DNA from: Desulfobacterales bacterium
GTDB taxonomy: Bacteria; Desulfobacterota; Desulfobacteria; Desulfobacterales; UBA5852
NCBI GenBank assembly: GCA_963674755.2
Contig: CAXXVS010000002.1
Coordinates: 1,600,001 to 1,664,000 of the forward strand
Reading direction: 5' to 3'
Length of the DNA stretch: 64,000 nt
Below the pieces are notes generated by a model. It ran no database searches and had not been told where the DNA came from. It was given only the letters and a program-made list of their open reading frames with translations. A program made the position numbers and the translations under genes. Shown piece by piece: positions 44,117 to 62,899 of this stretch; position 1 is the stretch's first letter, and each line of letters starts with the position of its first letter.

Positions 44117-45185
44117 GGGGACGTTGTTGACAAGCTACACTAACTCGTCCGGTGGAGGATTTGAGAAATACCCGAGGTGGTGACACCCAATCGTCGGGCG
44201 GCCTCGGCACGCGTCAAGCCCAGTTGGTAAACCAATTGGGGTGCCAGATCCCGCCGCAGCTTTGGCAGCACGCCGATACGGCTTCCCGAACGAAGCGTTT
44301 CAATGCCAATGCCGGCTTTTGTGCAGGTCTCCTGGATAAGTTCGTCCGCTTGGGCGCTTGCTTGATTGAACGGCAACTGCCGCGCAGCGTGGACCGTCGC
44401 CTGGGTCACCAGTTCCTGGACAAAGCCGCTGCTGCCCAGGATGCGCTCATCCCCTTTCACCTTATCGCCCCTGCGCCGCAGGCTCTTGACCTCCGACCAG
44501 CCGCCCTGTGATCGCACAAGCCCTCCGCCGACAAGCTCCGGGCGCTGGCCCTGATCCTTCCCGCTGGCCACGAAACGGCGATAGGCCACACGGGCACGCT
44601 TTTCAGTCCGGCCGAACCACCGCAGCACCTCGTCGATCGCCTGCCACGGTCTTTGCCTTTTGCCCAGCACGGCGGCATGCCCGCACCAGGGATAGCGCTC
44701 CAGCGCGGCCAGATCCGCCACCGCTCCGGCCCGAAGCGGGTTAAGGTGGATGTAGCGCACCAGCTCTTTGAAATAGGGATCTTCTTCACACACGATGGAT
44801 TTGTAGCGGTTCTGGAATAAATGCCCGTGACGCCGGTGGCGCCGGTTGTAGCACACGGCATGCCCAGTCAAAAGCCGTCGCATGAACCCGGCAAGCCCGG
44901 CCGGACCACTTTTGACCAGCAGATGGGCATGGTTATTCATCAAGGCCCAGGCGCAGACCGCGGTGCGGGTTTCCGAAGCCAGATCGCCAAGGCGATCCAC
45001 GAATCGTTCCCGATCCTGATCGTCATCCACGATGCGACGTCTTTCGATACCGCGGACAATAACATGATGAAGGGTTCCGGGGGCGTCAAGGCGTGGTCCT
45101 CGGGGCATGGTTGACTCCTGATAGGCTAAAATAAGGCAACAGCTCGATGCTAAACTATTTTGTGCACTTTGTCAACAACGTCCCC
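44117..45185 (-). mobile_element. 1069-bp element with HUH/Y1 transposase and 17-bp TIRs
   Basis: GGGGACGTTGTTGACAA (44117-44133) and TTGTCAACAACGTCCCC (45169-45185); no obvious target duplication. Confidence 0.85.
44140..45108 (-). CDS. Y1 HUH (RAYT-like) transposase with C-terminal HTH
   Basis: HHVIVRG, NNHAHLL (HUH), GHLFQNRYKS, RYIHLNP (catalytic Tyr) and terminal HTH AEAARRLGVTTSGISQ. Confidence 0.9.
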   Translation of the reverse strand: MPRGPRLDAPGTLHHVIVRGIERRRIVDDDQDRERFVDRLGDLASETRTAVCAWALMNNHAHLLVKSGPAGLAGFMRRLLTGHAVCYNRRHRRHGHLFQNRYKSIVCEEDPYFKELVRYIHLNPLRAGAVADLAALERYPWCGHAAVLGKRQRPWQAIDEVLRWFGRTEKRARVAYRRFVASGKDQGQRPELVGGGLVRSQGGWSEVKSLRRRGDKVKGDERILGSSGFVQELVTQATVHAARQLPFNQASAQADELIQETCTKAGIGIETLRSGSRIGVLPKLRRDLAPQLVYQLGLTRAEAARRLGVTTSGISQILHRTS

Positions 45186-45502
45186 TATTTACCTTATCGC
45201 AATCTCGGGTTGTATCTGATTTCAGACTTGCGTTATGGTGGCCTCCAACAAAGTATGGATGACATGGTCCGCCCTGCTTTAGCCATGCCGCAAGTTGAAA
45301 TTTCAGCCTCATCATCATTGGCGCGCCACCTGACGCGCCCTGGCCCGTTTCGCGACCATCGTCAGGTGGATGACCGGTGCGCATCGACCACGTGCCGGGC
45401 CTGCCGGAATCGGATGGTGCCGGGGGGAACACGGCTGCCTGAGGTGAGCGAATCAGGCGTTTACATCTACTGCGACGACGACTGGCACCCGAGGTTGGCA
45501 TC

Positions 45503-46867
45503 ATGACCGTTGGCGGGCGACTCCTTAAATTCCATCCGGCAACCCTCGTTCTCACCAGCTTTGTGCTGGTGATCGCCATCGGAACACTCTTGTTGAAATT
45601 GCCGGTTGCGACCCATACCGGCCATATCTCATGGAGTGATGCCCTGTTTACATCCACTTCGGGCGTTTGTGTGACGGGTTTGGCCGTGGTGGACACCGGG
45701 AGCACCTTCACCCTCTTCGGCCAGTGCGTCCTCCTGGCCTTGATCCAGATCGGGGGGCTGGGGCTCATGACCATTTCGGTGACCCTCTTCACGTGGGTGG
45801 GCCGCAGCATTTCCATCCGGCACCGGATGGTCATGCAGGACCTCTTCGCGCACACGCCCCGTGCGGATATCTACAGCCTCGTCAAAAGTATCGTGCTGTT
45901 TACAGCCACAGCGGAGATCGCCGGCGGCTTGGTGCTGACCCTGTTCTGGCACCGTGAAATGCCCTGGGGGCAGGCCGCCTACAACGGAATTTTCCATTCG
46001 GTTTCGGCCTTCTGCAATGCCGGTTTCGCCCTCTTTCCGGACAGCATGATGCGCTACAGCGGGGATCTGCTGCTCAACATCACCATGTGCAGCCTGATCG
46101 TGATCGGCGGGATCGGCTTCCCGGTGCTCTACGACCTGCAGTGCTGGGTCAAATTCCGCAAGCGACAGCGCTGCCGCCTGTCGGTCCAGACGAAAACCGT
46201 CCTGCTGACGACCGCCATCCTCATCGTGGGCGGCGCGGTCTTGTTTTCCCTGCTCGAGCAATTCCCGGCCGGCGACGGGTCCTCCCTCGGCCATCGCCTG
46301 ATGGTACCGCTGTTCCAATCCGTCACCTGCCGGACGGCCGGCTTCAACACGGTCGATATCGCCGGATTGAAAGACGCCACCCTGGCCATGATGATCTTCC
46401 TCATGTTCGTGGGCGCTTCGCCCGGCTCGTGCGGCGGCGGGGTCAAGACCACCACGTTGGCGCTTCTGGCGGCCTTTACCGCCAGCCGTTGGCGCCGTCG
46501 GCGGCGGGTGGATCTGTTCAAGAAAAGCATCCCCCAGGAAACCGTCATCCGCAGCGTGGCCCTCGTTCTGGTCACGATCGGCATTATCGCGCTGGTCTTG
46601 TTCCTGTTGCTGGCCGGGAATGCGGAGCTGCCGTCCCACCAAGCCCGAGGGGTTTTTCTGCCCTTGTTGTTTGAAACCGTGTCCGCTTTCGGGACCGTGG
46701 GGCTGTCCATGGGGGTCACCCCGCAACTGGGCCTTTGGGGCAAGTGCTGGATCATGGCGGTGATGCTGATCGGCCGCGTGGGGGTGCTGACGTTCGCCTA
46801 TATTTTCGTCGGCGCCGGCATGGTCGACGGCATCGAGCACGCCGAAGAAAACCTGATGATCGGATAG
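45503..46867 (+). CDS. ktrB: Ktr/Trk K+ uptake membrane subunit
   Basis: Four pore loops CVTGL, FCNAGF, RTAGF and FGTVGL; GGGVKTTT. Confidence 0.9.
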   Translation: MTVGGRLLKFHPATLVLTSFVLVIAIGTLLLKLPVATHTGHISWSDALFTSTSGVCVTGLAVVDTGSTFTLFGQCVLLALIQIGGLGLMTISVTLFTWVGRSISIRHRMVMQDLFAHTPRADIYSLVKSIVLFTATAEIAGGLVLTLFWHREMPWGQAAYNGIFHSVSAFCNAGFALFPDSMMRYSGDLLLNITMCSLIVIGGIGFPVLYDLQCWVKFRKRQRCRLSVQTKTVLLTTAILIVGGAVLFSLLEQFPAGDGSSLGHRLMVPLFQSVTCRTAGFNTVDIAGLKDATLAMMIFLMFVGASPGSCGGGVKTTTLALLAAFTASRWRRRRRVDLFKKSIPQETVIRSVALVLVTIGIIALVLFLLLAGNAELPSHQARGVFLPLLFETVSAFGTVGLSMGVTPQLGLWGKCWIMAVMLIGRVGVLTFAYIFVGAGMVDGIEHAEENLMIG

Positions 46868-46880
46868 AAGGAGCTCCACC

Positions 46881-47537
46881 ATGAAGCGATTTGCAGTGAT
46901 CGGACTTGGCAAATTCGGGTTCCATGCCGCCAAGGCCTTGTATGAGGAAGACAATGAAGTGCTGGCGATCGACAACGACAAGGGACGGGTGCAGGCGATC
47001 GATCCCCACTGTTCGGAGGCCATCGTTCTCAATGCGACGGACAAGGAATCACTGAAGGCTCTGGGGCTGGAAAATTTGGACGGGGTGATTGTTTCCACCG
47101 GCACGAACATCGGTATCAGTGTCTTGATCTGTCTGTATCTGCAGGAGATCGGCGTCCGTAAGATTCTTGCCAAGGCCCTGGACGAAGATCACGCCAAGAT
47201 CTTGAAACGCGTCGGCGCCAGCGAGATCATTCACCCGGAGCGCGACATGGCGGTGCGAATCTCTCGCGGCCTGTCGCGGCCCAATGTCCTGGATTTCATC
47301 CCCCTGGCCGACGAGTACGATTTGATCCAGGTCGGCCCGCCGAGTGAATTTACCGGAAAAAGTCTGAAGGACCTCAATTTGAGGGCCAAGTACAATGTCC
47401 ACGTCATTGCCATAAAAGAACTCGTTCCCGAGAATTTCGTTTTGATACCGCCGGCCAGCTTTGTCATAAAGGACAGCGATATTCTGGTCATGCTCGGCAA
47501 ATCAGAGGATATCAAACGGATAAAAGCGTTGAAATAA
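46881..47537 (+). CDS. ktrA: Ktr/Trk regulatory RCK subunit
   Basis: VIGLGKFG, IHPERD and RCK-C domain; 218 aa. Confidence 0.9.
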   Translation: MKRFAVIGLGKFGFHAAKALYEEDNEVLAIDNDKGRVQAIDPHCSEAIVLNATDKESLKALGLENLDGVIVSTGTNIGISVLICLYLQEIGVRKILAKALDEDHAKILKRVGASEIIHPERDMAVRISRGLSRPNVLDFIPLADEYDLIQVGPPSEFTGKSLKDLNLRAKYNVHVIAIKELVPENFVLIPPASFVIKDSDILVMLGKSEDIKRIKALK

Positions 47538-47564
47538 ATCGATACGATTTCTCATCGTGTTGAA

Positions 47565-47780
47565 TCCGAAGCCAGATTGCCAAAGCGATCCAGGAATCGT
47601 TCCCGATCCTGATCGTCATCCACGATGCGACGTCTTTCGATACCGCGGACAATAACGTGATGAAGGGTTCCGGGGGGGGTCCAGGCGAGGTCCTCGGGAC
47701 ATTGTTGACTCCTGATAGGCTAAAAATATGGCAACAACTCAACGCCAAATGTTTTTGTGCACTTTGTCAACAACGTCCCC
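47565..47780 (-). pseudogene. transposase 5' fragment plus right TIR (F2)
   Basis: Near-identical to 44972-45185 with a +1 frameshift in a G run; ends in TTGTCAACAACGTCCCC. Confidence 0.88.
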
Positions 47781-47926
47781 ATCTATCCCCAAGCGGCGAT
47801 GATGACCCATTGTTTTGTCGGCATTTCATATCCTCCATGTAGTGTTGTCAGAATCCTTGCCTGCCAATGGGTATCGGAACGGGTAGAAAAGGTTCAGAAG
47901 GCGTCGAGATCGTCTTCACTTAAAGT

Positions 47927-48183
47927 GGGGACGTTGTTGACAAGCTACACTAACTCGTCCGGTGGAGGATTTGAGAAATGCCCGAGGTGGTGACGCCCAA
48001 TCGGCGGGCGGCCTCGGCACGCGTCAGGCCCAGTTGGTAAACCAAACGGGGTGCCAATTCCCGCCGCAGCTTTGGCAGCAAACCGATACGGCTTCCCGAA
48101 CGAAGCGCTTCAATGCTAATGCCGGCTTTAGTGCAGGTCTCCTGGATAAGTTCGTCCGCTTTGGTGCTTGCTTGATTGAACGG
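47927..48183 (-). pseudogene. left TIR plus transposase 3' fragment (F3)
   Basis: Near-identical to 44117-44373. Confidence 0.9.
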
Positions 48184-48205
48184 TTAATTTCTCCCTTTTA
48201 CAGAA

Positions 48206-48994
48206 TCAAAGCCCGGCCGTGGAGCCGAAGTCGATGTTCAGGCAGGCGCCTGTAATCGGAGCCGCCTGGTTCGTGGTCAGGTAGAAAATCAGCCCCGCGA
48301 CTTCGTCCGGTTCGATAAAACGCGCCTTCTCGCCCTGTGGATAGCGTTCCAGAAGCGCCCTCAAATAGCCTTCCGGGTCGCCGTTTCCGTAGGTATCCGC
48401 CTGGTATTGCAGCATGGGACTCATGATGTCGCCGGGACAAACCGCATTGACGTTGATCATGTCCGGGGCCAGTTCGATGGACAGGGCCTTGGTCATGAGA
48501 GAGACGCCCCCTTTGCTGGCGCAATAAATAGCCGCGCCGACATCGCCCAGCACCCCTGCGTCCGAACTGAGATTCACGATGCTCCCCCGGGTCTTCCTCA
48601 GCTCGGGAATGGCACGGGAACACATGAAATATGCCCCCTTGAGGTTGACATCGATACACCAGTCCCATTCCTCTTCGGTGCTCTTTTCGCTGGCACCTTC
48701 CACCCATACACCGGCCGCGTTGATCAGGATGTCCAGACCTCCGAAGACGCTCACGGTTTCGCGGATGGTCGCTTCGCAATCACCGACCTTGGTGATGTCG
48801 CAGATGCAGGTATATAATCTCTCCCCCAGGGGCGCCAAATCGGAAACGACCTGGGCCAGGCGATCCCCGTTGATGTCGGCCAGCACGACCCCGGCCCCTT
48901 CGATCAGGTAGCGGCGGGCGGTGGCCACGGCCACGCCACCACATCCGCCGGTAATCAGCACGACCTTTTCCTGCCAGTGATCTTTTTCAATCAT
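48206..48994 (-). CDS. SDR oxidoreductase
   Basis: TGGCGG, INAAG, YCASK and NAVCPG. Confidence 0.9.
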   Translation of the reverse strand: MIEKDHWQEKVVLITGGCGGVAVATARRYLIEGAGVVLADINGDRLAQVVSDLAPLGERLYTCICDITKVGDCEATIRETVSVFGGLDILINAAGVWVEGASEKSTEEEWDWCIDVNLKGAYFMCSRAIPELRKTRGSIVNLSSDAGVLGDVGAAIYCASKGGVSLMTKALSIELAPDMINVNAVCPGDIMSPMLQYQADTYGNGDPEGYLRALLERYPQGEKARFIEPDEVAGLIFYLTTNQAAPITGACLNIDFGSTAGL

Positions 48995-49017
48995 GACAAC
49001 TCCCACCGGTCTCCCGC

Positions 49018-49812
49018 TTAATAGTAAAGTTCACGCGGGCCCTTGTATTCCTGAATGGAATTGCCCCCGTCGATGACGATCATTTGTCCCGTAATGTAGG
49101 TGGATTCGTCTGAAGCGAGAAAACCGATCAGGTCGGCAACCTCCATCGGTGTGCCGCCACGCTTCATGGGGGTGTTTATCGCCGCGGCCTTCTCCTCTTC
49201 GGTAGCGGCGTCCGTTGCGATCCAGCCCGGGGCCACGTTGTTGACCGTGATGCCGAACTCCGCCACTTCGAGGGCCAGACTGCGGCTCATGCCGACCATG
49301 GCGGCTTTGGCGGCGCTGTAGGCGGCCTCCCCGGGGTTGCTCACCAGCGGGCCGGTGACCGATGCGACATTGACGATACGTCCGAACCGGTTGGTGATCA
49401 TGATGGGCAAAACAGCCCTGGTTATGTTGAAGCAGGTGTTAAGGTTGCGGTCGATCGACTTGTCCCATTCCTGCCAGCTCAGGCTGGCCATGCGGGTGAA
49501 GGTCTCCGGTTCACCCACTTGTCCCATACCGGCATTGTTCACCAGGATGTCCACGCGGCCCAGATCGTCGAGGGCGCTCTCCGCCAGAGCTTTGACCTGA
49601 TGACGGTCCGTGAGGTCGGCCACATAGGCGTATGCGCGGATGCCGGTCTCCTTGAGGGCCCGGGCGCGGTCAAAGATGCGATCGGTGGTTGAGGTGATGG
49701 CAACGGCTGCTCCTGAAGCCCCCAGCAACCTGGCCGTAGCGAACCCGATCCCATTCGGGTTGCCGCAACCGGTGATCAGGGCCGAGCGGTTATCGAATCG
49801 CTTTTTGTCCAT
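49018..49812 (-). CDS. SDR oxidoreductase (FabG-like)
   Basis: TGCGNPNGIG, VNNAG, YSAAK and ITGQMIVIDGG. Confidence 0.9.
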   Translation of the reverse strand: MDKKRFDNRSALITGCGNPNGIGFATARLLGASGAAVAITSTTDRIFDRARALKETGIRAYAYVADLTDRHQVKALAESALDDLGRVDILVNNAGMGQVGEPETFTRMASLSWQEWDKSIDRNLNTCFNITRAVLPIMITNRFGRIVNVASVTGPLVSNPGEAAYSAAKAAMVGMSRSLALEVAEFGITVNNVAPGWIATDAATEEEKAAAINTPMKRGGTPMEVADLIGFLASDESTYITGQMIVIDGGNSIQEYKGPRELYY

Positions 49813-49826
49813 GACACTCCCTTAAA

Positions 49827-50055
49827 TAGTGCCCATCCAGAGGTGGTAGATTTTGGTTCCGGCCAAGGCCGTAGCGATTTGGAAACCGACGGCATAGCCG
49901 TATGAGCGGCAGCGGCGCGTAGCCCGGCTACGTCGAGGATTTCCAAAGAGCGAGAACGCCGGCTTGTCCGCTAAAGGTGTTATTATCCCTATTCGGGGGC
50001 TCGGCTCACCGGCGGCGGGCCAGGGCCGAAAGATGCCATTTATGGACGGGCACTA
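49827..50055. repeat. MITE-like element, copy 2
   Basis: TAGTGCCCATCCA/TGGACGGGCACTA ends; shares internal blocks with 13525-13782. Confidence 0.75.
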
Positions 50056-50060
50056 AATAT

Positions 50061-51446
50061 CTAATCGTTGGCCAGTGCGGCCATCTCTTCCATAAGCGCA
50101 TCCCAATGCATCAATAGGATGTCAATGTCCTCATCCGTAGCCATGGGCGGCACCAGCATCATGTTGTGGAAAGGCGTTATCAGCAGGCCCCGGTTGGCGA
50201 GAAAGAGATGGGTGTAGTAGATCAGATCCCAGTGGAAGTTCGCCTTGGCTTCCCCGCCATTGACGGGGGACGTCGGCATGAACTGAAGCTCGGCGCGGGC
50301 GCCGCAGCGGGTGACACTCCATGGCAGACGGTATTTGTCGATGGAGGCCTCCAGTCCGTCCGCCATCCGGTTGGCCGCTGCGATCATGCGGTCAAATGCC
50401 GGCGGGGTCGCCACCTCCTCCAAGGTTCGTCGCATGGCGTGAACGGCAAAGGCGTTGCCGGACAGCGTTCCGCCGATCCCCATCGGGTCGGCGACCCCCT
50501 TGTGGCCGAAGGAGGCGTTGATGCGCTCTTTGATGTCCTCCGTAAACCCATATGCGGCAACCGGAATCCCGCCGGCAATGCACTTGCCCAAGGTCACAAA
50601 ATCCGGTTTAAGGCCGAATGCCCTGGTATACCCTCCCCAACCGGTGGAAAAGGTGTGGGTCTCATCGATGACCAGCAACGTGCCGTATTGGTCGCACAGT
50701 TCGCGCAACCGGTCGTGATAGCCCGGAGCGGGCAGGACCATACCGCAGTTCGTCATGACCGGTTCGGCCACGACGCAGGCCACATCTTCATATTGCAATT
50801 CGCGCTCCAGGGCCGCAAGGTCATTGAACTCTACCATTCTTGTCAGCGCGTCTTTAGGGACGGCCGGATTGATGTCGTACTCGGAGCGGAGGGTGAGAGA
50901 ACCGTCGCCGGCAATGTGCGGCAGGGTTTCTTCCACACTGCCGTGATAACATTCGTTGAACGCCAGCGTCTTCGGCCGGCCGGTGAGCACCCGCGCAATT
51001 CGGATGACATAGCGGTTGGCCTCGGTGGCTGTCATGGCCACCTGCCAGTAGGGAACGCCGAAGCGCGCCGCCAGATCGCGGCCGACAGCCAAAGCATCCT
51101 CACTTGGGAGCATGGTCGTGATACCCCGGCGGACCTGTTCGGTTACCGCCTGAACGGTAGGCTCCGGTGAATGGCCGAACATGGCGCCCGTGTCACCCAG
51201 ACAAAAATCAATATATTCGTTGCCGTCCACGTCGATCACGCGGTTTCCGGAAGCCCGTTCGACGAATAGGGGGTAGCGCGTTCCCCAGTCGCCCATCCAC
51301 GGCATGGGAACCCCGTTGAGCAGCATCGTTTGCGCTTCTTTAAACAGCCGACCGGAGTTGGGGGTCCGGGATTCGTAGACGGCAGTCTCGCGATCGTTCA
51401 ACGCTGCCAGTGATTGACCGGTGATGACCCTGTAGGAACTGCGCAT
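50061..51446 (-). CDS. class III aminotransferase (GSA-like)
   Basis: DVDGNEYIDFCLGD, IDETHT, LGKCIAGG and GGTLSGN; GGAGG RBS. Confidence 0.88.
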   Translation of the reverse strand: MRSSYRVITGQSLAALNDRETAVYESRTPNSGRLFKEAQTMLLNGVPMPWMGDWGTRYPLFVERASGNRVIDVDGNEYIDFCLGDTGAMFGHSPEPTVQAVTEQVRRGITTMLPSEDALAVGRDLAARFGVPYWQVAMTATEANRYVIRIARVLTGRPKTLAFNECYHGSVEETLPHIAGDGSLTLRSEYDINPAVPKDALTRMVEFNDLAALERELQYEDVACVVAEPVMTNCGMVLPAPGYHDRLRELCDQYGTLLVIDETHTFSTGWGGYTRAFGLKPDFVTLGKCIAGGIPVAAYGFTEDIKERINASFGHKGVADPMGIGGTLSGNAFAVHAMRRTLEEVATPPAFDRMIAAANRMADGLEASIDKYRLPWSVTRCGARAELQFMPTSPVNGGEAKANFHWDLIYYTHLFLANRGLLITPFHNMMLVPPMATDEDIDILLMHWDALMEEMAALAND

Positions 51447-51492
51447 GTCGATGCCTCCGATAGACATGGTTATGGATGATGACCCTATTTGG

Positions 51493-51535
51493 CTGAACGC
51501 ACGTTCAGTATAAACTTGGCTATACGTGCGTTCAG
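51493..51535. promoter_or_regulatory. two TetR-type operators
   Basis: CTGAACG-CA-CGTTCAG and a degenerate CTATACGTGCGTTCAG between the divergent genes. Confidence 0.65.
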
Positions 51536-51612
51536 TGATATTGTCAAGTTCCGGCGACCGAATCAAACGCACGGTGGCGACGGTATTATGTTTGATCCAC
51601 TAATCCAGGAAA

Positions 51613-52251
51613 ATGGCCATGGCCGCTGATGACCTCAAACCCAATCTGACAAGAGCGGAACAGAAGAAAGAAACCCGGGGAAAACTGATTGAAGCGACCC
51701 TGGATATCATCGCCGAGGGGGGACTGGCCGAGGTGACCCTGCCGAAAGTGGCCAAACGTGCCGGTTTGTCACGCGGCATCTCCAACTTTCACTTTGTTTC
51801 AAAGGACAATCTCCTGCTTGAAACGCTTAAAACGGTTCATTCTGAGTTGGACCGCGTGTGGCGCCACCATCTCATCGAATCGGATCTTCCTCCCGCCGAC
51901 CAGTTGAAGGGCTTTCTTAACGTTGTTTTCAAACCTCCCGTCGCTGACTTGAAAAAGATCTCGGTCTGGCTCGCCTACTGGGGGGAAACCGCTTATCGCA
52001 AGCGGTATCTGGAATCGTTCACCGCCAAAGACCGGGAATACGAAGAGGCCATCGAGGGGCTGATGGCCAGGCTGGCGGGCACCAAGACGACTGTGGGCGG
52101 TATGCCGATCCGCGCCATTGCCGTGGCGCTTACGGCGATAATAGATGGCTGCTGGCTGCAATTCCTCATTGCGCCGGGGCGGCTTGGCGCCGATGAAGCG
52201 ATGAACGCCTGCTGCTCTTATCTGTCACGATTTTTCCAGGAATTCAGGTGA
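51613..52251 (+). CDS. TetR family regulator (BetI-like)
   Basis: LIEATLDII...VAKRAGLSRGISNFHF and WLAYW. Confidence 0.88.
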   Translation: MAMAADDLKPNLTRAEQKKETRGKLIEATLDIIAEGGLAEVTLPKVAKRAGLSRGISNFHFVSKDNLLLETLKTVHSELDRVWRHHLIESDLPPADQLKGFLNVVFKPPVADLKKISVWLAYWGETAYRKRYLESFTAKDREYEEAIEGLMARLAGTKTTVGGMPIRAIAVALTAIIDGCWLQFLIAPGRLGADEAMNACCSYLSRFFQEFR

Positions 52252-52314
52252 TACGAACCCATATGGCAGTTGGTTAGAAAAGCATAAAAACATCGAATGT
52301 CCCTACACTACTCC

Positions 52315-52440
52315 CATGATGAAGGGTTCCAGGGGCGTCAAGGCGTGGGCCTCGGGGCATGGTTGGCTCCTGATGATAGGCCAATTTATTGAATTGGCTC
52401 TACGCAATGCAGGTTTGTGCACTTTGTCAACAACGTCCCC
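52315..52440 (-). pseudogene. transposase 5' stub plus right TIR (F4)
   Basis: Encodes MPRGPRLDAPGTLHH; ends in TTGTCAACAACGTCCCC. Confidence 0.85.
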
Positions 52441-52746
52441 ATCTTTCCGCCCGTTTTCGATAATACAGTATATTAATGCATTCATAGCTAAGCATGTTAT
52501 AGAATTTTTAAGTAGGTGTTTAAACCTATCCTTTTGCAAAGTTTATAAGTTTAGGGCGTTTCCTTGTTATCATTAATTGGATTCATTTGGAAAAATTTGT
52601 CTGTTAAGTGTTGGGATCTGACACCGTTCCTTTTTACACAATTAAGTTAATAAGTTCAGGGCGTCCCCTTGATGTCCCCGGCAGGGACTTACACCCTGCA
52701 AGATGCGCCGAGCTTTGCTCGGCGCGATAACGACGCTAAGCCCCTG

Positions 52747-53613
52747 CTATCCTTCAATTTCATCAGCCATTGCGTTGAATTGATCTATAAGCTTATTCCA
52801 TTCTTTATTCAACGCTATTTTAAATATGGATTGAATCGCATTTAAAATTATTATCATAAGATCCGCAGATGAAAATAACAATAGATCAACGCCCTTCGTT
52901 TCCGGCCCCCAAAGTATCTCTTCAATCAAATTATCATCGTCAATTTTGAAGTAATGTTCAAGATCCCTTGTGCTTGAATGAATAGTATCACTCAATAAAA
53001 CATATTGAGAATCATAATAGGAAAGCATTCCTGCCGCTTCGGCTTTATCTTTAATAAATAGTTTTTTTATTTTTAATTCCTTAATTTGTTCGCTAATATC
53101 GTCAATATCTATATTAATTTCATCAACCGTTTTACCTTCAATTTTAACGCCCCTCTCATGGTTAAATAAGACGGCTTTCAAGGCGGACCTTCGATGGAAA
53201 TAGTCTTGACATATTAGTTGTTCAATAAAATTTTCATTCTTGGCTACTGCAACAAGATTAAAAGCGATTTCTGAAAGGCATCTCAAAATTGTACGTACTT
53301 CAAAAACCATCCCTTTTTCGGCTAACAAAATTATGCCTTGAAAATTGCTTAAAGCCCTTGTAAGATATCCAGCCGAAATATATTTTTTAGCTAACGCAAG
53401 TTGCCTTTTTTTTCTTTCTATTTCAAAATCGGGGCTGTCTATAATATCTTTTACTTCAATATCGCGTTCAATATGAAGATCCAGCATTTTGGACAAGCCG
53501 AAGCGATTTAGTTTCTCGCATAAAGAGAACCAATGTCTGTGATCATCTAAAATTTGCTTTGCAAATTTATGGATTTCAAATGAAAGGAAACCGTCTTGAT
53601 TTATATCACCCAT
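52747..53613 (-). CDS. AT-rich hypothetical protein (DUF5677-like)
   Basis: R..LSE and Y..LS...H motifs, helical; much lower GC than the flanks. Confidence 0.65.
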   Translation of the reverse strand: MGDINQDGFLSFEIHKFAKQILDDHRHWFSLCEKLNRFGLSKMLDLHIERDIEVKDIIDSPDFEIERKKRQLALAKKYISAGYLTRALSNFQGIILLAEKGMVFEVRTILRCLSEIAFNLVAVAKNENFIEQLICQDYFHRRSALKAVLFNHERGVKIEGKTVDEINIDIDDISEQIKELKIKKLFIKDKAEAAGMLSYYDSQYVLLSDTIHSSTRDLEHYFKIDDDNLIEEILWGPETKGVDLLLFSSADLMIIILNAIQSIFKIALNKEWNKLIDQFNAMADEIEG

Positions 53614-53834
53614 AATAGTCCTCTATTTGATTATGAACTATGAGTACCTAATGCCATTATTGGGAAAAGCGTGCAATAGAAAGGAAAACGGGGACGATGC
53701 CGAAAAGTGGCGTCCCCGTTTTCAATCCGCCTGCATTATGCATCAAGGCACCGGCATACAGGCGTCCCTCCCGAAGCGCTCCAAACTGCGTTCAATATCT
53801 TCAAGCCGCTGGATGACTGTATAAGCCAAGGACA

Positions 53835-53895
53835 GGATTGATCTGACATTATGTTGGTTTGTACACTTTGTCAACAACGTCCCCTAACTGTCCCC
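53835..53895 (-). mobile_element. isolated right end (F5)
   Basis: Near-duplicate of 54179-54236; TIR ends at 53884, followed by TAACTGTCCCC. Confidence 0.8.
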
Positions 53896-53988
53896 AGGTA
53901 TTTTGTTATGGGATACTTTTCGGTTATTTAAAAATTGTCTTTTAGGATTAGCCTTTGTTTATATATGAATGGACGTCCCTGCCCCCTC

Positions 53989-54228
53989 CCCAGGCACAGA
54001 CCGCGGTGCGGGTTTCCGAAGCCAGATTGCCAAGGCGATCCAGGAATCGTTCCCGATCCTGATCTTCATCCACAATGCGACGTCTTTCGATACCCCGAAT
54101 AATCGCATGGTGAAGGGTTCCGGGGGCATCCAGGCGAGGGCCGCGGGGCATGGTTGACTCCTGATAGATCAATTTATGGGATTGATCTGACACTATGTTG
54201 GTTTGTACACTTTGTCAACAACGTCCCC
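53989..54228 (-). pseudogene. transposase 5' fragment plus right TIR (F6)
   Basis: MPRGPRLDAPGTLHHAIIRGIERR...TAVCAW, then an abrupt break. Confidence 0.9.
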
Positions 54229-54235
54229 TAACTGT

Positions 54236-54498
54236 CGGTTCTGCTTGGCCCCCCGCAGTTCCTCCCCTTCGATGAGGAGGATCGGTTTCGACCCCTCGTT
54301 GGTCAGCTTCAACCGGTTGACGTTTCCCGCGTCGTCGACTTCCGTGACCGTCAACACCCCGCTCTCGATGGCCTGCTCCAGGGTCAGGTAGTAGGGCTCG
54401 ACGCCGTTGGCATGCAACACCGGGAACACGGTCAAATTGCGGCAGGTCTGTTTTTTACCAACTTCACAGCCGTTCAAAAAGGAAAGAATGGATTTCAT
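54236..54498 (-). pseudogene. truncated DUF6569/ARPP-1-like gene
   Basis: NLTVFP, YLTL, TEV and GEELRGAKQNR, then runs into the element end; GGAGG RBS. Confidence 0.7.
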
Positions 54499-54650
54499 CG
54501 TGTCGGCCTCCTGGTTGAGTGTTATGGGTGGAGGCTAACATTTCAGTTTGTCAGATAAGGACAGATACTGAGTGGCTGTAGACCGCTTGATAATATACCA
54601 GATATGACATATTATCGCATAGAAATAAAACCATCTGACAAACTCGAATT

Positions 54651-54959
54651 ATGGACAAGAATAAAAAACGACAACTTGAATCCAAGGGTTACCGGGTCGG
54701 AGACACCAAGGACTTCCTTGGGCTCAGCCAGGAACAATCCACCTACATCGAAATGAAATTGGCCCTGAGCCAAGCCCTGGCCCGGAAACGCAAACAGCGC
54801 CGTTTGACGCAATTGGAACTGGCCCGGAAGCTCAATTCCAGCCAGTCCAGGATCGCCAAGATGGAAAAGGGGGATCCCACCGTATCCGTGGACCTTCTTG
54901 TCAAAGCGCTTTTGGCCATGGGCGCCACCAAAAAAAGCATAGCTAAAACCATCGGCTGA
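54651..54959 (+). CDS. XRE-family HTH protein (antitoxin-like)
   Basis: LTQLELARKLNSSQSRIAKMEKGDPTVSVDLL. Confidence 0.85.
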   Translation: MDKNKKRQLESKGYRVGDTKDFLGLSQEQSTYIEMKLALSQALARKRKQRRLTQLELARKLNSSQSRIAKMEKGDPTVSVDLLVKALLAMGATKKSIAKTIG

Positions 54960-55082
54960 GGCAACAGCATCGCCTTTTCCGCTTTACGCAAAACTAACCT
55001 ACCCTGTCCTTGAGTATTGTTTTGAAACATCGACCAAAAAAACTCAAGCTTCTGCCTTTGTGATCCCAAGGACACACAGCTA

Positions 55083-56933
55083 TTAATCATTGACCAGCAA
55101 TAACGGTATCCATGGCATGGCGCCCTGACCCATTACCATCCCTTGACTTGCAAGCGTTGATATTTCTCCATCAGTGAGGACGCGATTATATATGCGAACT
55201 TCATCAATCTTGCCTATGAAATGCCCGAAGTGGCTCGCTATTTCACCATACCCGATTTTCAGGGGACTGTCGTTCGTCACGATGTCTGTGTCCCCTACTG
55301 TTGATCGCGTATTGATCAATTTACCATTGCGATAGATCTTTTGTACATGTCCTTCATGGTCATAAACACCGACGATATGGTACCATTTGTTTAATGCGTT
55401 TACATCCGATGTGCGGACACCTTCAATCACGCCGCCCGACATCGACCAGTCCCTGACAGCGAAATCAGTGCTGTGGCAAAAATCTAATTCGTAGTTTCTC
55501 CCACCCCCGTAAAAATCATTATTCGACTTTGATAAAATATGGCTGCATGTGTTTGTCTCATATCCAGTGGGGTAGGCCCAGGCTGATATAGTGAACGAGT
55601 CTTCTAATTTCAGTGTATCGGTGCTGGGGATAACGATCTCGTCATCGAGCCCGTCAAACATTGCGCATTGCCCGATTACGCCTTCGCCAAAGGTAACGCC
55701 GTTTTCTATAGCGCCATTGTTGTCATTGTCGGTGGCGTCCAGGGCATCCCCGTCCATTGGATAATGGGCGACCAGTCCGAAATTGAGGTCACCAGCCAAA
55801 TTTATCGTGGTTAACTCCCAAATAAATTCGGTTTCATAACAGGTGACATCGCCGTGCGGGGGGTATTCCCTGTCATTAATGATGGCCTTGATAATGCCGA
55901 TGTCCGGATTCGTCCAATACGTGTCCGTATTAATTCCCTCTTCCCCATCGTCCTGCTCGTAATGATAGACCACCTGAAATTTCACGCAGGGAAAAGTGCC
56001 CGCTGGCACATCGACGCTTTCATTGCTTAAATAGGTGATGTGGGCATCAATATCGTAGGTGCCCAGGGGCCTGTCGGACTCGTCATAGTCTCCATCGCCC
56101 AGGTACAAATCACTGGCGCTGTCGTCCAACACTAACGGGATAAGTTCCAAGGGATTATTGTTGATGGCCGTTAAAACATCGTCGCCGTCGTCCTCGTGCG
56201 CCAGTTCGACAACCTGCTGAATCGCGCTGGGCGATAAATGCCAAGAAAATTCTTCCGACAGACTTCCCAAGTCAGGGACGTCGGTCTGTAGATGGAACAC
56301 CGTGCATTCGTAATCATCTGGTATTTGAACAATTTTTCTTTCCTTAGCCTCCAAAACGATGGTTCCCGTATAAAGCACGTTTTCAGCATGTTCGAAATTG
56401 CCGTAAAGATAACCCCACTGAAGGGAAACCTGATCGCCATTTGCATCGATAATAGCGGTGATTGCATATCGTCCCTCTTTGGTTTTAAACCATCGCGCGC
56501 CGCCGCCTCTGTAGTCCCACGTATCGTTAAAGACAGTCCCTTCAGAGCGCCAGTCGGAAGGCGGCGGTAGAAATGTTTGGGTCCCGAAATAATCGCCTAT
56601 CGGTCCGTAAACGCTTGAAATGCCCGTTTCCGAGAAGGAATCGACGTAAACCCCTTGGCTGTTGCCGGTGAAGGCGATGTCGCCATCTTCCATATCGACA
56701 ATTTTGCCCGACGAAAAATCAAAGCCGGATCCCACTGGGACGATTGTCACTTGAAGATCATCACGGTCTACATTCTCGAACATCGAATACGTAACGTCAT
56801 ATTCCCACCGATTGCCGATATTGAAAAACGCTTCCTTGAATAACTGATGTTCTGCAGCGTTAGCATTTGAAACAAAAAACAGCGAACACAATAGAAGTAT
56901 TATCAGAAAACCTCTTCTCTTTTCCGATCTCAT
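55083..56933 (-). CDS. secreted protein with C-terminal LamG-like domain and AMPWIPLLL tail
   Basis: Signal peptide (ANA), GLVAHYPMDGDA, FTISAW, WYHIVGVYD and GKIDEVRIYNRVL. Confidence 0.85.
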   Translation of the reverse strand: MRSEKRRGFLIILLLCSLFFVSNANAAEHQLFKEAFFNIGNRWEYDVTYSMFENVDRDDLQVTIVPVGSGFDFSSGKIVDMEDGDIAFTGNSQGVYVDSFSETGISSVYGPIGDYFGTQTFLPPPSDWRSEGTVFNDTWDYRGGGARWFKTKEGRYAITAIIDANGDQVSLQWGYLYGNFEHAENVLYTGTIVLEAKERKIVQIPDDYECTVFHLQTDVPDLGSLSEEFSWHLSPSAIQQVVELAHEDDGDDVLTAINNNPLELIPLVLDDSASDLYLGDGDYDESDRPLGTYDIDAHITYLSNESVDVPAGTFPCVKFQVVYHYEQDDGEEGINTDTYWTNPDIGIIKAIINDREYPPHGDVTCYETEFIWELTTINLAGDLNFGLVAHYPMDGDALDATDNDNNGAIENGVTFGEGVIGQCAMFDGLDDEIVIPSTDTLKLEDSFTISAWAYPTGYETNTCSHILSKSNNDFYGGGRNYELDFCHSTDFAVRDWSMSGGVIEGVRTSDVNALNKWYHIVGVYDHEGHVQKIYRNGKLINTRSTVGDTDIVTNDSPLKIGYGEIASHFGHFIGKIDEVRIYNRVLTDGEISTLASQGMVMGQGAMPWIPLLLVND

Positions 56934-57017
56934 TATTCTTCTCCTTCCCATCGCTTGAGATCATTATTACTGGAACACAAAACACCTTTTCTGCATATTG
57001 TCGCTGTAATTATAAGA

Positions 57018-57859
57018 TTACTCCACAAGAAGCAGCGGGATCCACGGCATTGCCTTTAATTCAGATGTCTCGTCCTTGATATTTGGATCTCCTTCGCCCG
57101 CATCCACTTGGCCGTTCCGATTAAGGTCTTCATCACCATCGGAGACTCCATCGCCGTCAGTGTCTGCCAAAAGTGGATTCGTTGTGGTAGAAGAATCCGC
57201 ATCCGGGACAAAAACCGCCAAGTCTGTATCCGACCCCACATCGGCCTCGGTCAGGCCGCTCTCGGTCCATCCTAGATGCCGTCGTTATCGGTGTCAGGAT
57301 CGCAGGGGTCGGTTTCGCCCGCATCAAGCACACCGTTGTGATTGGCGTCTTCCACCCCGTCCAGGATGCCGTCGTCGTCCGTGTCGGCATCGTTGGGATC
57401 TGTGCAGCCGGATTCCTCCAAAGAATCCTGTAAACCGTCGTTATCTGAATCCTGAATTTCGGAGGCTTGGAGAAAAAGACTGTGCTCGGATCCCGCTGCT
57501 ACCTGGGAAACATCGCTGGCGACCTGTACGGGCGTGATGCGATCGGTGCTCGTGCCGTCGCCTAGTTGGCCAGATTCATTATAGCCCATGGCCCAGAGCG
57601 TGCCGTCGGTCTTTACAAACAGGCTGTGAACGGGTCCCGCAGCCACCTGAGAAATATCTGTGGCGACCTGAATGGGTGTGATGCGTTCGGTGGTCGTGCC
57701 GTCGCCGAGCTGGCCATAGGAATTAGCGCCCATCGCCATAAGCGAGTCCGCTCTTGAACTTATTGGAATTATGGCCACCAGAAGAGCGAAGGAGGTAATC
57801 ATGAAAAACGATAATTTGGTCCTTCTCATGATTAACTTCGGAATTGGGAAACAGGTCAT
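57018..57859 (-). pseudogene. disrupted secreted RCC1-repeat / DxDxDG Ca-binding repeat protein with AMPWIPLLL tail
   Basis: GxNxxGQLGDG repeats and DTDxDG repeats; TAG at 57272-57274 plus a 1-nt deletion just after it split one gene into two ORFs. Confidence 0.8.
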
Positions 57860-57868
57860 ATCGGTCTC

Positions 57869-58234
57869 CTAAAGCCAGCTGATGTTGTTAAGAGGACATC
57901 CGCTAGATCGAATTTCATCGGCTTTTTTGGGGTTACGAAAATCCGCCACGACGTCGGCTTCGCACCGCGCAAAATTCAGCCGACCGCTGCGCATGTGCGC
58001 CTGCAGATAAATCGGGTACCCGTGGCCCGATACTAGATCGACCGCGTACCAGGTCGCAGTGCCGCAATACTCGACATTATGAACCTCATCGAATCCAGGA
58101 AATAGATCGGCAGAATATTGATCGACGGCCGAAACCATCTCGATGCAGGTAAGATCGGCGGCTTGGGAGGAAGGGATTAAAAGCGTTACGGCAAGGACGA
58201 CCAGAAAACACCACAGCCCCATTCGGTTTGGCAT
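57869..58234 (-). CDS. small secreted Cys-containing hypothetical protein
   Basis: GGAGA RBS, signal peptide ending SQA, 4 Cys in the mature part. Confidence 0.65.
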   Translation of the reverse strand: MPNRMGLWCFLVVLAVTLLIPSSQAADLTCIEMVSAVDQYSADLFPGFDEVHNVEYCGTATWYAVDLVSGHGYPIYLQAHMRSGRLNFARCEADVVADFRNPKKADEIRSSGCPLNNISWL

Positions 58235-58546
58235 TGCGATCTCCAGGTGAATTCAGAAGAGAATGAAAAAGGAACGATGTCTGTATGGATATTCGACACT
58301 TGTGTAATCCGGCCGATGAAAGGGATGTTTTGTTGGGAGAAAAGAAAGTGGGATTCGGCACGGGCGGAGTCCGAATTACATACAGTCCATATGATGGTTC
58401 GACGCTCCATGACCGACCCTATTGTGGTTTCACAATTTATTTATCTGGATACCGCAGCCATAGATATACGGATAAGCCAATAAGGTTGTAATTTCAGCCG
58501 GCAGTGAACCATTGCGGTTCAGGGAAGGGATCAGAAGTATAATACG

Positions 58547-58562
58547 TGCAAAAAACAAGCCG
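58547..58562 (-). promoter_or_regulatory. sigma54 promoter for the secreted-protein cluster
   Basis: Minus strand CGGCTTGTTTTTTGCA is GG-N10-GC; AT-rich tract and palindrome ATTATGAA-N6-TTCATAAT about 85-105 bp upstream. Confidence 0.55.
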
Positions 58563-58984
58563 TAATTATAGGCACTTATTGATTAGGTAATTTGTAAATA
58601 ACCGCAGATAGATTAGGTTACTCGAAATATTTATGCGACGTCTAATTATGAAACCGGGTTCATAATCCTTGTCCTGATAATGGGAATTCAAATACCCATA
58701 TTGAAATTGTCTACTTGCCGTTATTGCCTGGCGCGGGGGGACTACCTAAAGCCGAGCCTGCTGTTGGATTCTTAACAGCCTGGATGAGTTTTACATGCTG
58801 ATAGGTTTAGCCGAAGCCGACGGACAGCAAAAGAATGGCAGACAAAACTACAAAGTCAATAAGTAGGAACACTTCCTGATATATCACCTGTGATGAGTTC
58901 CAGCCCCTGCTACAATCAGAACTGAAAACCCTCTTGGCCCTCAAACGGATGATTGTCCCCTGATTCACCAAGCCGGGAGTGCCC

Positions 58985-60199
58985 CTACCGGCGAACGCAA
59001 ACCGTTATTGCCGTCTCTCCTTTCCTGTAAACCCAAGACGACAACACCGTCACCGAGATGATCATCAGCCCGGACAGACTCAGCAGCAGGTGACTGTTGC
59101 AATATTCCAGCAGGAATCCGTACACCAGCATGGCAAAGGGGATGGAAAAGTTGCCCACGGAGCTGACCACCCCGAACACCCGGCCGGTCATCTCCGGCGC
59201 GGTATCGGCCTGGATCAGGGATTGGAAGCTGGTGGCCGCCAGGATGATGGACGCGCTCACCAGGAGGAACAGCACGAGGTAAGGGATCAGGTAGGCTGCG
59301 GTGATTTCGGAAAGGCCGATCAAGGACAGGAATAGCCCGATCAGGGCCACCGCCACAAACAACATGGAGGCTTCCCGGCTGCGGATGCTGAAAAAGCTCA
59401 GCACCAGCGCCATAATCACCGCCCCGGCTCCGAAAGCGGTCTGGATATAGCCCATGTTCGCAGGCCCGCTGCCGGGGAGGAGGTCGGCGATCACCGGGAT
59501 GGCCACTTCGATGGAGCCTACGAAGAAGTGGATCACGAACACCATGAACAGGATAACCAGCAGTTTGCGGTCCGCATAAATGGTCCGGTAGCCTTCCTTG
59601 AAGGCCGCAACGAAACTTTCATGGGCCTCTGTTTTGACGGACGGAATGTTGAGAAAGCACTCAAAGAAGGCCGATGCAAAATAGGAGGCGGCATTCAGGG
59701 CGAACACGATAAAGTAGCCGTAAATCGATACCAGGATGCCGCCCAACGCCGGGCCGGCGATATTGGCGAAACCCGACACGAACTGGGTTTTGGCGTTGGC
59801 TTTGGACAGCTCGGCCTTGGGCACGATCATGGGGATCACGGACGGGATAGCCGGGTTGAAAAAGGCCGAATTGAGACCCAGGAGCACCTGGGAGGCCAGG
59901 ATCAGACCGAAGGTCAAGGCGCCTCGAAGGTAGAGGAAGGATACGACGGATACGATGACCCCGCGCAGGATGTCCGTAACGATGATGACGGCCTTGCGGT
60001 CCACCCGGTCCACCACGACCCCGGAAAAGAGCCCGGCCGCCACGAGGGGCAGCATGCCGGCAAAGAGCACCACCCCCATCCTGGCCGCCGACCCCGTGGT
60101 TTCGAGCACCATGAAAGACAGGGCCAGCATGTAGAATTTGTCCCCGGTCTGGGAAACGAGCTGGCCGGAAAGCAGAAGGTTGAGATTTATATTGCGCAC
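58985..60199 (-). CDS. MFS transporter (DHA3/macrolide-efflux-like)
   Basis: GQLVSQTGD, GVVVDRVDRK motif A and GRVFG; about 12 TM segments. Confidence 0.9.
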   Translation of the reverse strand: MRNINLNLLLSGQLVSQTGDKFYMLALSFMVLETTGSAARMGVVLFAGMLPLVAAGLFSGVVVDRVDRKAVIIVTDILRGVIVSVVSFLYLRGALTFGLILASQVLLGLNSAFFNPAIPSVIPMIVPKAELSKANAKTQFVSGFANIAGPALGGILVSIYGYFIVFALNAASYFASAFFECFLNIPSVKTEAHESFVAAFKEGYRTIYADRKLLVILFMVFVIHFFVGSIEVAIPVIADLLPGSGPANMGYIQTAFGAGAVIMALVLSFFSIRSREASMLFVAVALIGLFLSLIGLSEITAAYLIPYLVLFLLVSASIILAATSFQSLIQADTAPEMTGRVFGVVSSVGNFSIPFAMLVYGFLLEYCNSHLLLSLSGLMIISVTVLSSWVYRKGETAITVCVRR

Positions 60200-60308
60200 C
60201 GATTCTTCCTTGTTTGGTTTTAGTGAGGCCTCTCCGAATGGCAGTTAGCTTCAGGAATATCCCTCGAAAGCGGCTTATGGACGGTTTTAAGATTTTGCTT
60301 TTGAATTT

Positions 60309-60479
60309 CCCTTTGTCCCGCGCCGAGCATCGGCGGGACGGCCGGATTAAAGCGCGCGGACTGTCTGAGCGAAGCGAGTTTCCGCGTGCTCCGGCCGTCG
60401 CGACGACGCGCAGGGTTAAGCGGGGCACGGGCGTTTTCTTTTGCTTCTGTTTTCTTGCACGTGCAAGAAAATGAAGAAA
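60309..60479 (+). repeat. structured dispersed repeat, copy B (no insert)
   Basis: CCCTTTGTCCCGCGCCGAGCATC...TCTGAGCGAAGCGAGTTT...TTTTCTTGCACGTGCAAGAAAA. Confidence 0.85.
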
Positions 60480-60632
60480 TCATTTATGGAAATGTGCCCC
60501 AGACAGTAAAGCCTCTTTAAATCCTCCTCCAGCAGTTGATGCTTTATCAGAACTTTTTTTATGCCCTTCGTTTTAAATTGTCCGCATCCCTAAACTGTGA
60601 ACCCATAAACAGGTCAACACCTTCATTTTGTC

Positions 60633-60688
60633 TTGACACCGCCTTAATACACCCGTATTAATACACATGTTTTAATACAAACGTATTA
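60633..60688 (+). promoter_or_regulatory. sigma70 promoter with three tandem operators
   Basis: TTGACA then TAATAC-N4-GT(A/T)TTA at 60645, 60659 and 60673 (14-bp period). Confidence 0.75.
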
Positions 60689-60718
60689 TTGTTTTACCCT
60701 TTTCAAGGAGGCCCCACC

Positions 60719-61348
60719 ATGCCCCTGGAAGATGACGGCTCGACACGCAACAAGCTCCTAATGGCCGCGATCCGCATATTTGCGCAAAACGGGTACAAGG
60801 AAACCACCGTCCGCCAAATCTGCAAGCAGGCCGGCTCCTCGAACATCAACAGCATCAACTACTATTTCGGCGGCAAGGAAGCGCTCTACCGGGAGATCCT
60901 GGAGCTTGTCTTCAGGGAATACGACCTCAGGAAAGATCCGGATTTCGCCTCCAAAACGCCGGAGGAGCGCCTGCGAATCTTTATCGAAACCCATTGCGAA
61001 ATGCTCTACCGCGAGGGGGAGTTCGCATCCGACCTCACCGCCATCTTCATGGCCGAGATGCTGAAGCCGTCACCGTTCCTGACGGAGCTCGTGGATCGCT
61101 ACAACCGCCCGCGGGTCAAGCAGCATCTGGCCATGATCCGCGCAATCATCGGGGACGACAAACCGGAAGCGACCGTTCGTAGCTGCCTCGTCAGCATCGC
61201 CGGCCAGATATTGTACTACAGTTTTGCCTGGCCGGTTTACGCCCGGCTTTTCCCGAGCGACAAGACCGTGCCGGATCATCAAAAGCTGGCCGACCACATT
61301 TACCGGTTTTCAATGGGCGGCCTGACAGCCGTCAAAGGAAAGAAATGA
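60719..61348 (+). CDS. TetR family regulator (CecR/DUF1956-like)
   Basis: LLMAAIRIFAQNGYKETTVRQIC...INYYFGGKEALY and FSMGGL; AAGGAGG RBS. Confidence 0.9.
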   Translation: MPLEDDGSTRNKLLMAAIRIFAQNGYKETTVRQICKQAGSSNINSINYYFGGKEALYREILELVFREYDLRKDPDFASKTPEERLRIFIETHCEMLYREGEFASDLTAIFMAEMLKPSPFLTELVDRYNRPRVKQHLAMIRAIIGDDKPEATVRSCLVSIAGQILYYSFAWPVYARLFPSDKTVPDHQKLADHIYRFSMGGLTAVKGKK

Positions 61349-61349
61349 G

Positions 61350-62504: not shown

Positions 62505-62607
62505 AATCGCCGGGCCAACCATAAATCATTTATAGCGCTCCCCACGACAGCTATAGTGGAAGTCCCCGAAAGGGTTCAATCGGTCGGGAGTGCTTTTCAC
62601 TAAATGG

Positions 62608-62800: not shown

Positions 62801-62899
62801 GATTCAAAACCAAAACCTTCAAAACCCTTCTCCCCCCTTTCTCTAAACAGGCGACACGCGGAAGATGGTTTTCCTATACCCGAATGATCGGGCACCTAT

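Follow-up and report, generated by a model that had tools for sequence, protein, structure and literature searches.

A 64,000-nt stretch of a Desulfobacterales genome (the window; contig CAXXVS010000002.1, positions 1,600,001–1,664,000) contains an intact TIRtron, in which the gene for an HUH/Y1 tyrosine transposase (TIRYT) lies between terminal inverted repeats (TIRs), together with a series of truncated TIRtron copies. The element belongs to this class by its enzyme and its ends, its relatives have moved without target duplication, neighbouring pieces are locally co-oriented and several junctions are anchored at element tips and show G microhomology. On balance, and with some reserve, we favour an explanation in which tip-anchored single-strand joining and direct-repeat recombination build arrays like those of IS26, the window being an old, decayed example with at least three TIRtron families. 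On this reading the window is not a running cassette system, and the data show neither discrete cassettes nor capture.

The genome holding the window (G000) is 6.7 Mb in 3 contigs. Window coordinates refer to the whole 64,000-nt stretch, and C2 positions are contig coordinates of G000. The window was compared with a relative from the same genus (G004), with further relatives (G003 and G001) and with short-read contigs from four sequencing runs (X18, X20, X22 and X23), of which X20 comes from another study and is approximately 99% identical to the window. Two sets of related loci were used, one of 34 loci and one of 38 further stretches, which overlap by at least one locus, and their counts were kept separate.

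The intact element and its transposase

The intact element comprises the following features.

44117..45185, minus strand: intact TIRtron, 1069 bp, target-site duplication absent
45169..45185, minus strand: 5′ (upstream) TIR, 17 bp, perfect
44117..44133, plus strand: 3′ (downstream) TIR, 17 bp, perfect
44140..45108, minus strand: TIRYT/TnpA-Y1 transposase open reading frame (ORF), 322 aa, with HUH residues H60-A-H62, Y119 and N123 (YIHLNP)

Sequence matching bore out the intact element and its perfect 17-bp TIRs (17/17) as well as the agreement over a longer length (21/24) that had been given in a preliminary description of this DNA; over 28 positions the agreement was 23/28. The tip motif, GGGGACGT, agrees with GGGGWSAS at 6/8 positions. 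The ends folded no better than shuffled sequences (z about 0), indicating that there are no subterminal hairpins. Repetitive extragenic palindrome (REP) hairpins with a GT[AG]G foot were not found between 43100 and 46200 around the transposase gene, and no target duplication was seen. A GGGAC[GA] tip was present on both sides of the gene in 24/34 related full-length genes, in line with the earlier view that the TIRs go with the Y1 gene and not with a DDE element.

The outer flank of the ends often finished in TA, with A at position −1 in 36/56 ends and T at position −2 in 38/56. Duplication of a TA target was rejected, as TA is enriched outside the tips yet the window element and the copies of the G070 array described below have no duplication. 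A universal 11-nt double-tip structure was also rejected because GGGA started at −9 to −12 in only 6/56 ends. Mini-elements of approximately 120–210 bp with both TIRtron ends and the gene deleted, resembling miniature inverted-repeat transposable elements (MITEs), were seen at G000:C3:1231298–1231514 and at L057 (G005:C1, ~1072950–1073070). Tandem stutters of the TIR tip plus 5–11 nt of outer flank were present at L010, L020, L024, L027, L028, L030, L195, L199 and L223.

The transposase matched Pfam Y1_Tnp (1.5e-11), no DDE domain was among its Pfam matches, and H60, H62, Y119 and N123 were invariant among 30 homologues. In a structure model (pLDDT 83) the helices at 280–321 form a C-terminal helix-turn-helix (HTH; ~280–321). 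The extra HTH had been proposed from the sequence, and it is supported by these helices and by matches to HTH_23 in 16 and to Bac_DnaA_C in 13 of the 30 homologues; the tail of the window protein itself gave only sub-threshold matches to HTH_3 and Sigma70_r4. The best fold match of the model was the Escherichia coli REP-associated tyrosine transposase (RAYT) 4ER8, followed by IS608 and ISDra2, while a PDB sequence search with the homologue alignment returned no matches. FQ and YIHLNP are present in the protein and its HUH motif is NHAH, with NHFH or NHVH in some homologues. A close homologue was found in 82 of the 151 genomes of the same order that were searched.

The element is therefore a TIRtron/TIRYT (TnpA-Y1 subclass 2.1), and a Y1 enzyme combined with TIRs and an HTH tail has been described before. 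It is not a REPtron (classical RAYT), as no REP hairpins were found within approximately 1 kb and its score against NF047646 (RAYT) was 62 bits, under the cut-off of 80. Nor is it an IS200/IS605 member, given the lack of hairpin ends, a score against NF033573 (IS200) of 18.9 bits, under the cut-off of 55, and the motif Y---NP, not Y---Q. It also differs from DDE insertion sequences (IS) in having no DDE domain and no duplication in the window or in 7 copies of the G070 array. The novelty that had been claimed for TIRs and an HTH on a Y1 enzyme was rejected, as the class is named in the available parts of two papers (PMC3733652, PMC6006769).

In those parts, Di Nocera, De Gregorio and Rocco (2013; PMC3733652) named the TIRtron and TIRYT and described features seen here, namely a RAYT-like tyrosine transposase and TIRs that lie at fixed distances and begin with a GGGG motif. 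There the TIRs were also found as singles, dimers and groups, and a GGGGWSAS-type tip in many members but not in every one. Quentin et al. (2018; PMC6006769) equated the TIRYT with TnpA-Y1 subclass 2.1 and discussed the HTH as a possible DNA binder. Their subgroup 2.1.2 resembles the window protein in FQ, Y[IV]HLNP, a DnaA_C/HTH_23-like tail, the lack of REPs and its frequency in delta-proteobacteria, but it has NH[YF]H where the window protein has NHAH, and the 322 aa of the latter compare with a subclass median of 238. Subclass 2.1/2.1.2 is RAYT group 1 of Bertels et al. (2017; PMC5581495, seen in part), for which a duplication rate of 6.3%, the highest among RAYTs, is given.

Truncated copies in the window

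Seven copies of the 17-mer with no mismatches were found in the window, on the minus strand at 44117 and 47927 and on the plus strand ending at 45185, 47780, 52440, 53884 and 54228. The chance expectation is 0.19 even at 3 mismatches and none of 100 shuffled sequences reached seven. Genome-wide mapping, as had been suggested, gave 11 exact copies in the whole of G000, including these seven. The seven ends lie exactly where first described and the five co-oriented fragments were confirmed, but further co-oriented ends at ~52564, 52668 and 53980 and a tip at 52304 had been missed. The pieces are listed below.

47565..47780, minus strand: 5′ fragment, element nt 1–214, 91%; inner break at the left edge of the segment missing in G004
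47927..48183, minus strand: 3′ fragment, element nt 813–1069, 94%
52272..52314, minus strand: TIR-like tip (tip ~52304), family unassigned, with a 10–11 nt outer stub, joined to the inner break at 52315
52315..52440, minus strand: 5′ fragment, element nt 1–123, 82%
52541..52679, minus strand: two ends, ~52564 and 52668, of a second TIRtron family (type of C3:604928)
53684..53723, no strand: hairpin from two GGGGACG tips (mini-element or bidirectional terminator), z = −5
53835..53892, minus strand: solo 5′ tip, 27 nt (53858–53884) alignable to the intact end
53955..53988, minus strand: end of a third TIRtron family (type of C1:626353), ~53980, with an outer stub
53989..54228, minus strand: 5′ fragment, element nt 1–240, 84%

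Each of the five fragments has one exact tip, a variable inner end and the orientation of the intact copy. The solo tip at 53835–53892 is a 98% direct repeat of 54179–54236, including 8 nt of outer flank. The inner breaks at 53989 and 52315 are each joined to the tip of another family through shared G's, the former to the third-family end via a shared GGG. The second-family end at 52668 carries an 11-nt outer stub.

The locus in relatives and strains

Comparison with other genomes and strains, which had been suggested as a check, showed that the ends mark rearranged, strain-variable DNA in G004 and X20. Two features define the locus.

45503..47537, plus strand: ktrB-ktrA K+ uptake genes, resident neighbour, common to G004 (95%)
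47565..64000, no strand: variable segment, part in the window; 18.8 kb (to C2:1666389) versus 2.3 kb of other DNA in G004

The gene order in G004 is the same, with lysE-argP, the intact element (91%, ORF intact) and ktrBA (95%), indicating that the element was inherited in place and that ktrBA is a resident neighbour. The statement that unrelated cargo lies between the copies thus holds for the strain-variable DNA and fails for ktrBA, which is found beside the element in G004 too. Between G000 and G004, homology ends at 47564, immediately before the first truncated copy begins, and is regained at C2:1666390. The sequences directly beyond each tip of the intact element differ as well, and G004 carries a tandem copy, joined at a G-run, of a stretch that covers approximately 107 nt at the 3′ end and the adjoining 9 nt of outer flank.

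In X20, a tip with 8 nt of outer flank is linked to 48203 (depth 9.8). The joint represents either a circle or duplication, if the tip is that at 52440, or a 420-nt deletion, if it is that at 47780; the summed X20 depth over 48–52 kb was not above that of the 44–48 kb part, and this even depth favours deletion. X20 lacked cover over most of 55.4–59.2 kb and X23 over 45.3–45.9 kb, which alone proves nothing. Identical X18 contigs bridge 45185, 47564/5, 48183 and 52315 and X22 bridges 47324–47921. Misassembly was rejected because these contigs cross the main junctions unchanged, X18 possibly being the source sample of the window assembly.

Arrays and mobility in other genomes

In G000, 25 oriented pieces listed by hand gave 12 neighbour pairs within 12.5 kb, 5 of them from the window array, and all 12 were co-oriented. 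When the pieces were placed at random, at most 7 close pairs arose in 10,000 trials. Extra oriented pieces were found at 8 of the 34 related loci (one being the orthologous locus itself), where 11/11 were co-oriented with the gene. They were also found in 10 of the 38 further stretches, with 28/30 co-oriented, 16 of these from a single array in G070. In a metagenome scan for TIRs, 33/124 loci had at least two tips and neighbouring tips were on the same strand in 16 cases and on opposite strands in 23, the latter mainly facing ends of whole or mini-elements; the contigs were mostly short and so uninformative on arrays.

The G070 array (L186–L188; G070:C1:3849425–3894875) consists of 12 two-ended copies and one stump within 45 kb, all on one strand. 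Other elements interrupt five of the 12 copies, and identity among the eight full-length genes that were compared is 97–99%. The DNA between copies holds different genes, which are small and mostly on the opposite strand and include six pairs of the toxin–antitoxin type. Among the 23 inter-copy ORFs scanned were two TumE, two PIN-Phd pairs, a HEPN-nucleotidyltransferase pair and a Gp49-HTH pair, as well as an AAA-nuclease and a Schlafen protein. A 125-nt inverted-repeat MITE, an IS66 element and a DDE_Tnp_1_4 IS were seen to have inserted repeatedly into TIRtron copies (L188), mostly with short duplications.

This TIRtron family was found near-identical at 4 other sites with unrelated flanks, and G167 has four TIRtron copies that are 97–98% alike. 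These dispersed near-identical copies indicate that whole TIRtrons move. No flank repeat longer than 3 nt was present in the 7/7 G070 array copies tested, and hence no target duplication. All G070 copies have an outer stub of 8–14 nt ending in a G-run, and 105/107 pairs of tips shared at least 6 nt of outer flank compared with 0/190 unrelated pairs; the shared stubs indicate a working end that can be situated beyond the inner repeat. Outside G000 and G070, 12/22 of the TIR-like pairs listed shared at least 6 nt of outer flank, after 7 pairs alike over all 20 nt were dropped as apparent internal repeats. A broader total for genomes other than G070 (230/595) was not used as unrelated repeats had entered it. 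The G070 array is the clearest seen, is a better test case than the window and, being the best candidate for an active enzyme, is likely to encode one.

Orientation relative to the replication fork

In G000, 12/14 TIRtron clusters are oriented with the replication fork compared with 8/21 DDE/IS110 genes and 51% of long ORFs (Fisher p = 0.007). Elsewhere, unmasked skew counts of 22/29 and 32/38 were inflated by the element's own bases, and masked counts were used instead. These were 19/23 where the skew was clear, 11:5:2 by genome and 18/29 in the other set. As kin are not independent, the p values for the fork are overstated. Co-direction with the fork is a moderate bias, and it is in the same direction as reported for IS200. 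In the part of the source used (PMC3971601), IS200 orientation is biased towards fork direction and few orientation-biased families are given for Proteobacteria. Fork bias alone predicts fewer co-oriented neighbours than were seen, so a local process is also needed.

Cargo between the copies

The cargo blocks in the window are 0.1–4 kb with irregular edges. They were compared with the fetched stretches of relatives and with 12 congeners, and the main ones are as follows.

48206..52251, no strand: accessory block with two short-chain dehydrogenases/reductases, a class III aminotransferase and TetR
52747..53613, minus strand: DUF5677 gene, AT-rich, upstream context different in X20
54236..54498, minus strand: ARPP-1 (PF20208) gene, cut after codon 88 by the 54228 tip with 7–8 nt of flank

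In the fetched stretches of G003 and G004, the homologues of the accessory block lack matching TIRs. ARPP-1 has a longer ORF in G001, also without matching tips, and the remainder of the gene was not found in G000. The DUF5677 gene was not found in the 12 congeners with the window query. No cargo block bounded by TIRs was found at a second site in the fetched stretches or the 12 congeners.

Proposed mechanism and alternatives

The favoured reading draws support from the synteny break at 47564/47565, the cut in ARPP-1, the duplication in G004, the X20 joint, the co-orientation and the G070 array, and also from the lack of flank repeats, the outer stubs shared by tips in G070 and the co-direction with the fork. 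Judging from HUH chemistry, the HTH would bind the TIR and Y119 would nick one strand at the G-run, at the tip or up to approximately 11 nt outside the inner GGGAC. The tip would then join a single-stranded target that contains G, in many cases close by and with a preference for the direction of the fork. Use of both ends would move the whole element, while use of one end would give stutters, tandem duplications, adjacent deletions and truncated copies in the same direction. Once direct repeats were in place, general genetics suggests that recombination and horizontal transfer would add or remove the intervening DNA, as in IS26 clusters, and toxin–antitoxin pairs would resist loss between copies.

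Several observations weigh against this explanation. Most TIRtrons are solitary, with extra pieces at just 8/34 and 10/38 loci, and only 4/48 of the internal breakpoints examined adjoin a tip. The 5′ ends of the window fragments are 79–87% identical to the intact end (76–87% mutually) and the G004 orthologue is 88% identical; being no closer than the orthologue, the fragments are not fresh copies but old ones. From 54228 to where the variable segment ends, no additional TIR of the scanned families was found. Many of the breaks in G070 are insertions of another IS or a MITE. The X20 joint is ambiguous, as it was placed at 52442 (the 52440 tip) and the 47780 tip looks alike. With the element masked, the fork bias shrinks to 27/37 compared with a background of 57% (p = 0.03).

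The strongest alternative, possible though clearly less probable, is a passive graveyard in which TIRtrons, each transposing independently as a complete element, enter a tolerant island acquired by horizontal transfer. Fork bias would make most of them co-oriented, ordinary deletions would erode them with tips surviving by chance or selection, and the ends would not be the cause of cargo turnover. The age of the fragments and their origin from three families fit this well, as do the 44/48 inner breaks lying away from tips, the continuation of the island for 12 kb beyond the last TIR and the existence of a fork bias. However, a bias of 70–85% predicts that 58–75% of neighbours would be co-oriented, against the 12/12, 11/11 and 28/30 seen (pairs not independent), and junctions lie 7–11 nt outside tips in the window, G004 and X20. 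Of the DDE/IS110 genes in G000, only 1/22 was accompanied by nearby partial repeats of its surroundings; another match proved to be a TIRtron piece.

A more far-reaching reading is that TIRYTs are a widespread HUH class that reads double-stranded TIRs via the HTH, transposes at the fork without duplication and inserts by preference beside its own ends carrying adjacent DNA, thereby building same-strand defence and toxin–antitoxin arrays of which G070 is live and the window decayed. Such arrays would be the single-strand equivalent of integrons and of IS26 translocatable units. We regard this as rather unlikely.

Less likely again is an integron-like or translocatable-unit system, in which the enzyme would excise units of cargo plus end, possibly as single-stranded circles, and integrate them beside a resident TIR, so that arrays would be stores of swappable genes. 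The alternation in G070 of near-identical elements with small, different, mostly opposite-strand and toxin–antitoxin-rich cargo would suit such a system, and the X20 joint, if at the 52440 tip, closes 48203–52442 into a circle or tandem repeat. Against this, the unraised X20 depth over 48–52 kb favours a simple deletion, the aminotransferase and TetR genes (G003, G004) and ARPP-1 (G001) occur without matching tips and DUF5677 was absent from the congener matches. The integron-like capture envisaged in the preliminary description was not upheld, given that no second TIR-bounded site was found in the fetched stretches or the 12 congeners and given the non-uniform blocks, the old fragments and the breaks off tips. 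Ownership of the ends by a separate DDE element, or an array produced by faulty assembly, is very improbable. Although TIRs are typical of DDE elements and TA is frequent at the close of the outer flank, the Y1 gene has tips on either side at most related loci, the tips are continuous with Y1 coding sequence in fragments, short-read contigs (X18, X22) cross the junctions and the copies differ by 6–18%, unlike a collapsed repeat.

Comparison with known systems

Like the window element, IS200/IS605 elements (IS608, ISDra2) have the HUH/Y1 fold and no target duplication. They differ in having asymmetric ends with subterminal hairpins, where the window element has non-folding inverted repeats, and a TnpA of approximately 150 aa with Y---Q and no HTH tail. 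The IS26 enzyme is a DDE transposase with a proven targeted cointegration route, and for TIRtrons this route is only an analogy. The likeness to IS26 clusters is that accessory genes lie among directly oriented copies of one element (PMC7885326, seen in part).

Unrelated genes in a row between same-direction repeats, and the toxin–antitoxin enrichment in G070, recall integrons. Integrons use a tyrosine recombinase, folded attC sites and uniform single-gene cassettes. None of these is present here, where the repeats are transposon ends or whole transposons.

The available text of both defining papers (PMC3733652, PMC6006769) leaves TIRtron function and mobility open, and that of PMC3733652 contains no report of whole-element movement, missing target duplication, same-strand cargo arrays or fork bias. 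No literature on TIRtron arrays, mobility or fork bias was found in a search for which subscription journals were mostly outside coverage, and in which the terms TIRYT and TIRtron turned up in two works only. The question is now testable through the predicted break position, the G-run target rule, the absence of duplication, the strand preference and the near-clonal G070 array. If the enzyme also moves neighbouring DNA, sulfate reducers and other bacteria would gain and lose genes by a route that has been overlooked, and the enzyme would be a compact one for joining DNA, with an end that looks programmable. If it does not, the window amounts to an ordinary graveyard of transposons from a class that has been little studied.

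Other features of the window

No Rfam matches were found in the window between 40 and 64 kb. Three palindromic non-coding repeat families, at 49815–50060, 60270–60460 and 52677–52737, gave 213, 89 and 5 BLAST matches in G000, respectively; the first also matches across the genus and none of the three has an Rfam match. A 79-aa ORF at 43851–44090 has no Pfam match and is single copy in G000, and three copies of it (one partial) are present among TIR remnants in G005 (L057). The gene at 54651–54959 encodes an HTH_3 antitoxin-like protein; copies that lie in other contexts in G003 and X23 are 92–93% identical to it, and a toxin partner was not identified at the window locus. Finally, 55083–57859 is a mosaic of pieces of secreted proteins (LamG, RCC1, acidic repeats). 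Their C-terminal tails are alike and end in MPWIPLLLV, and one of the pieces looks broken.

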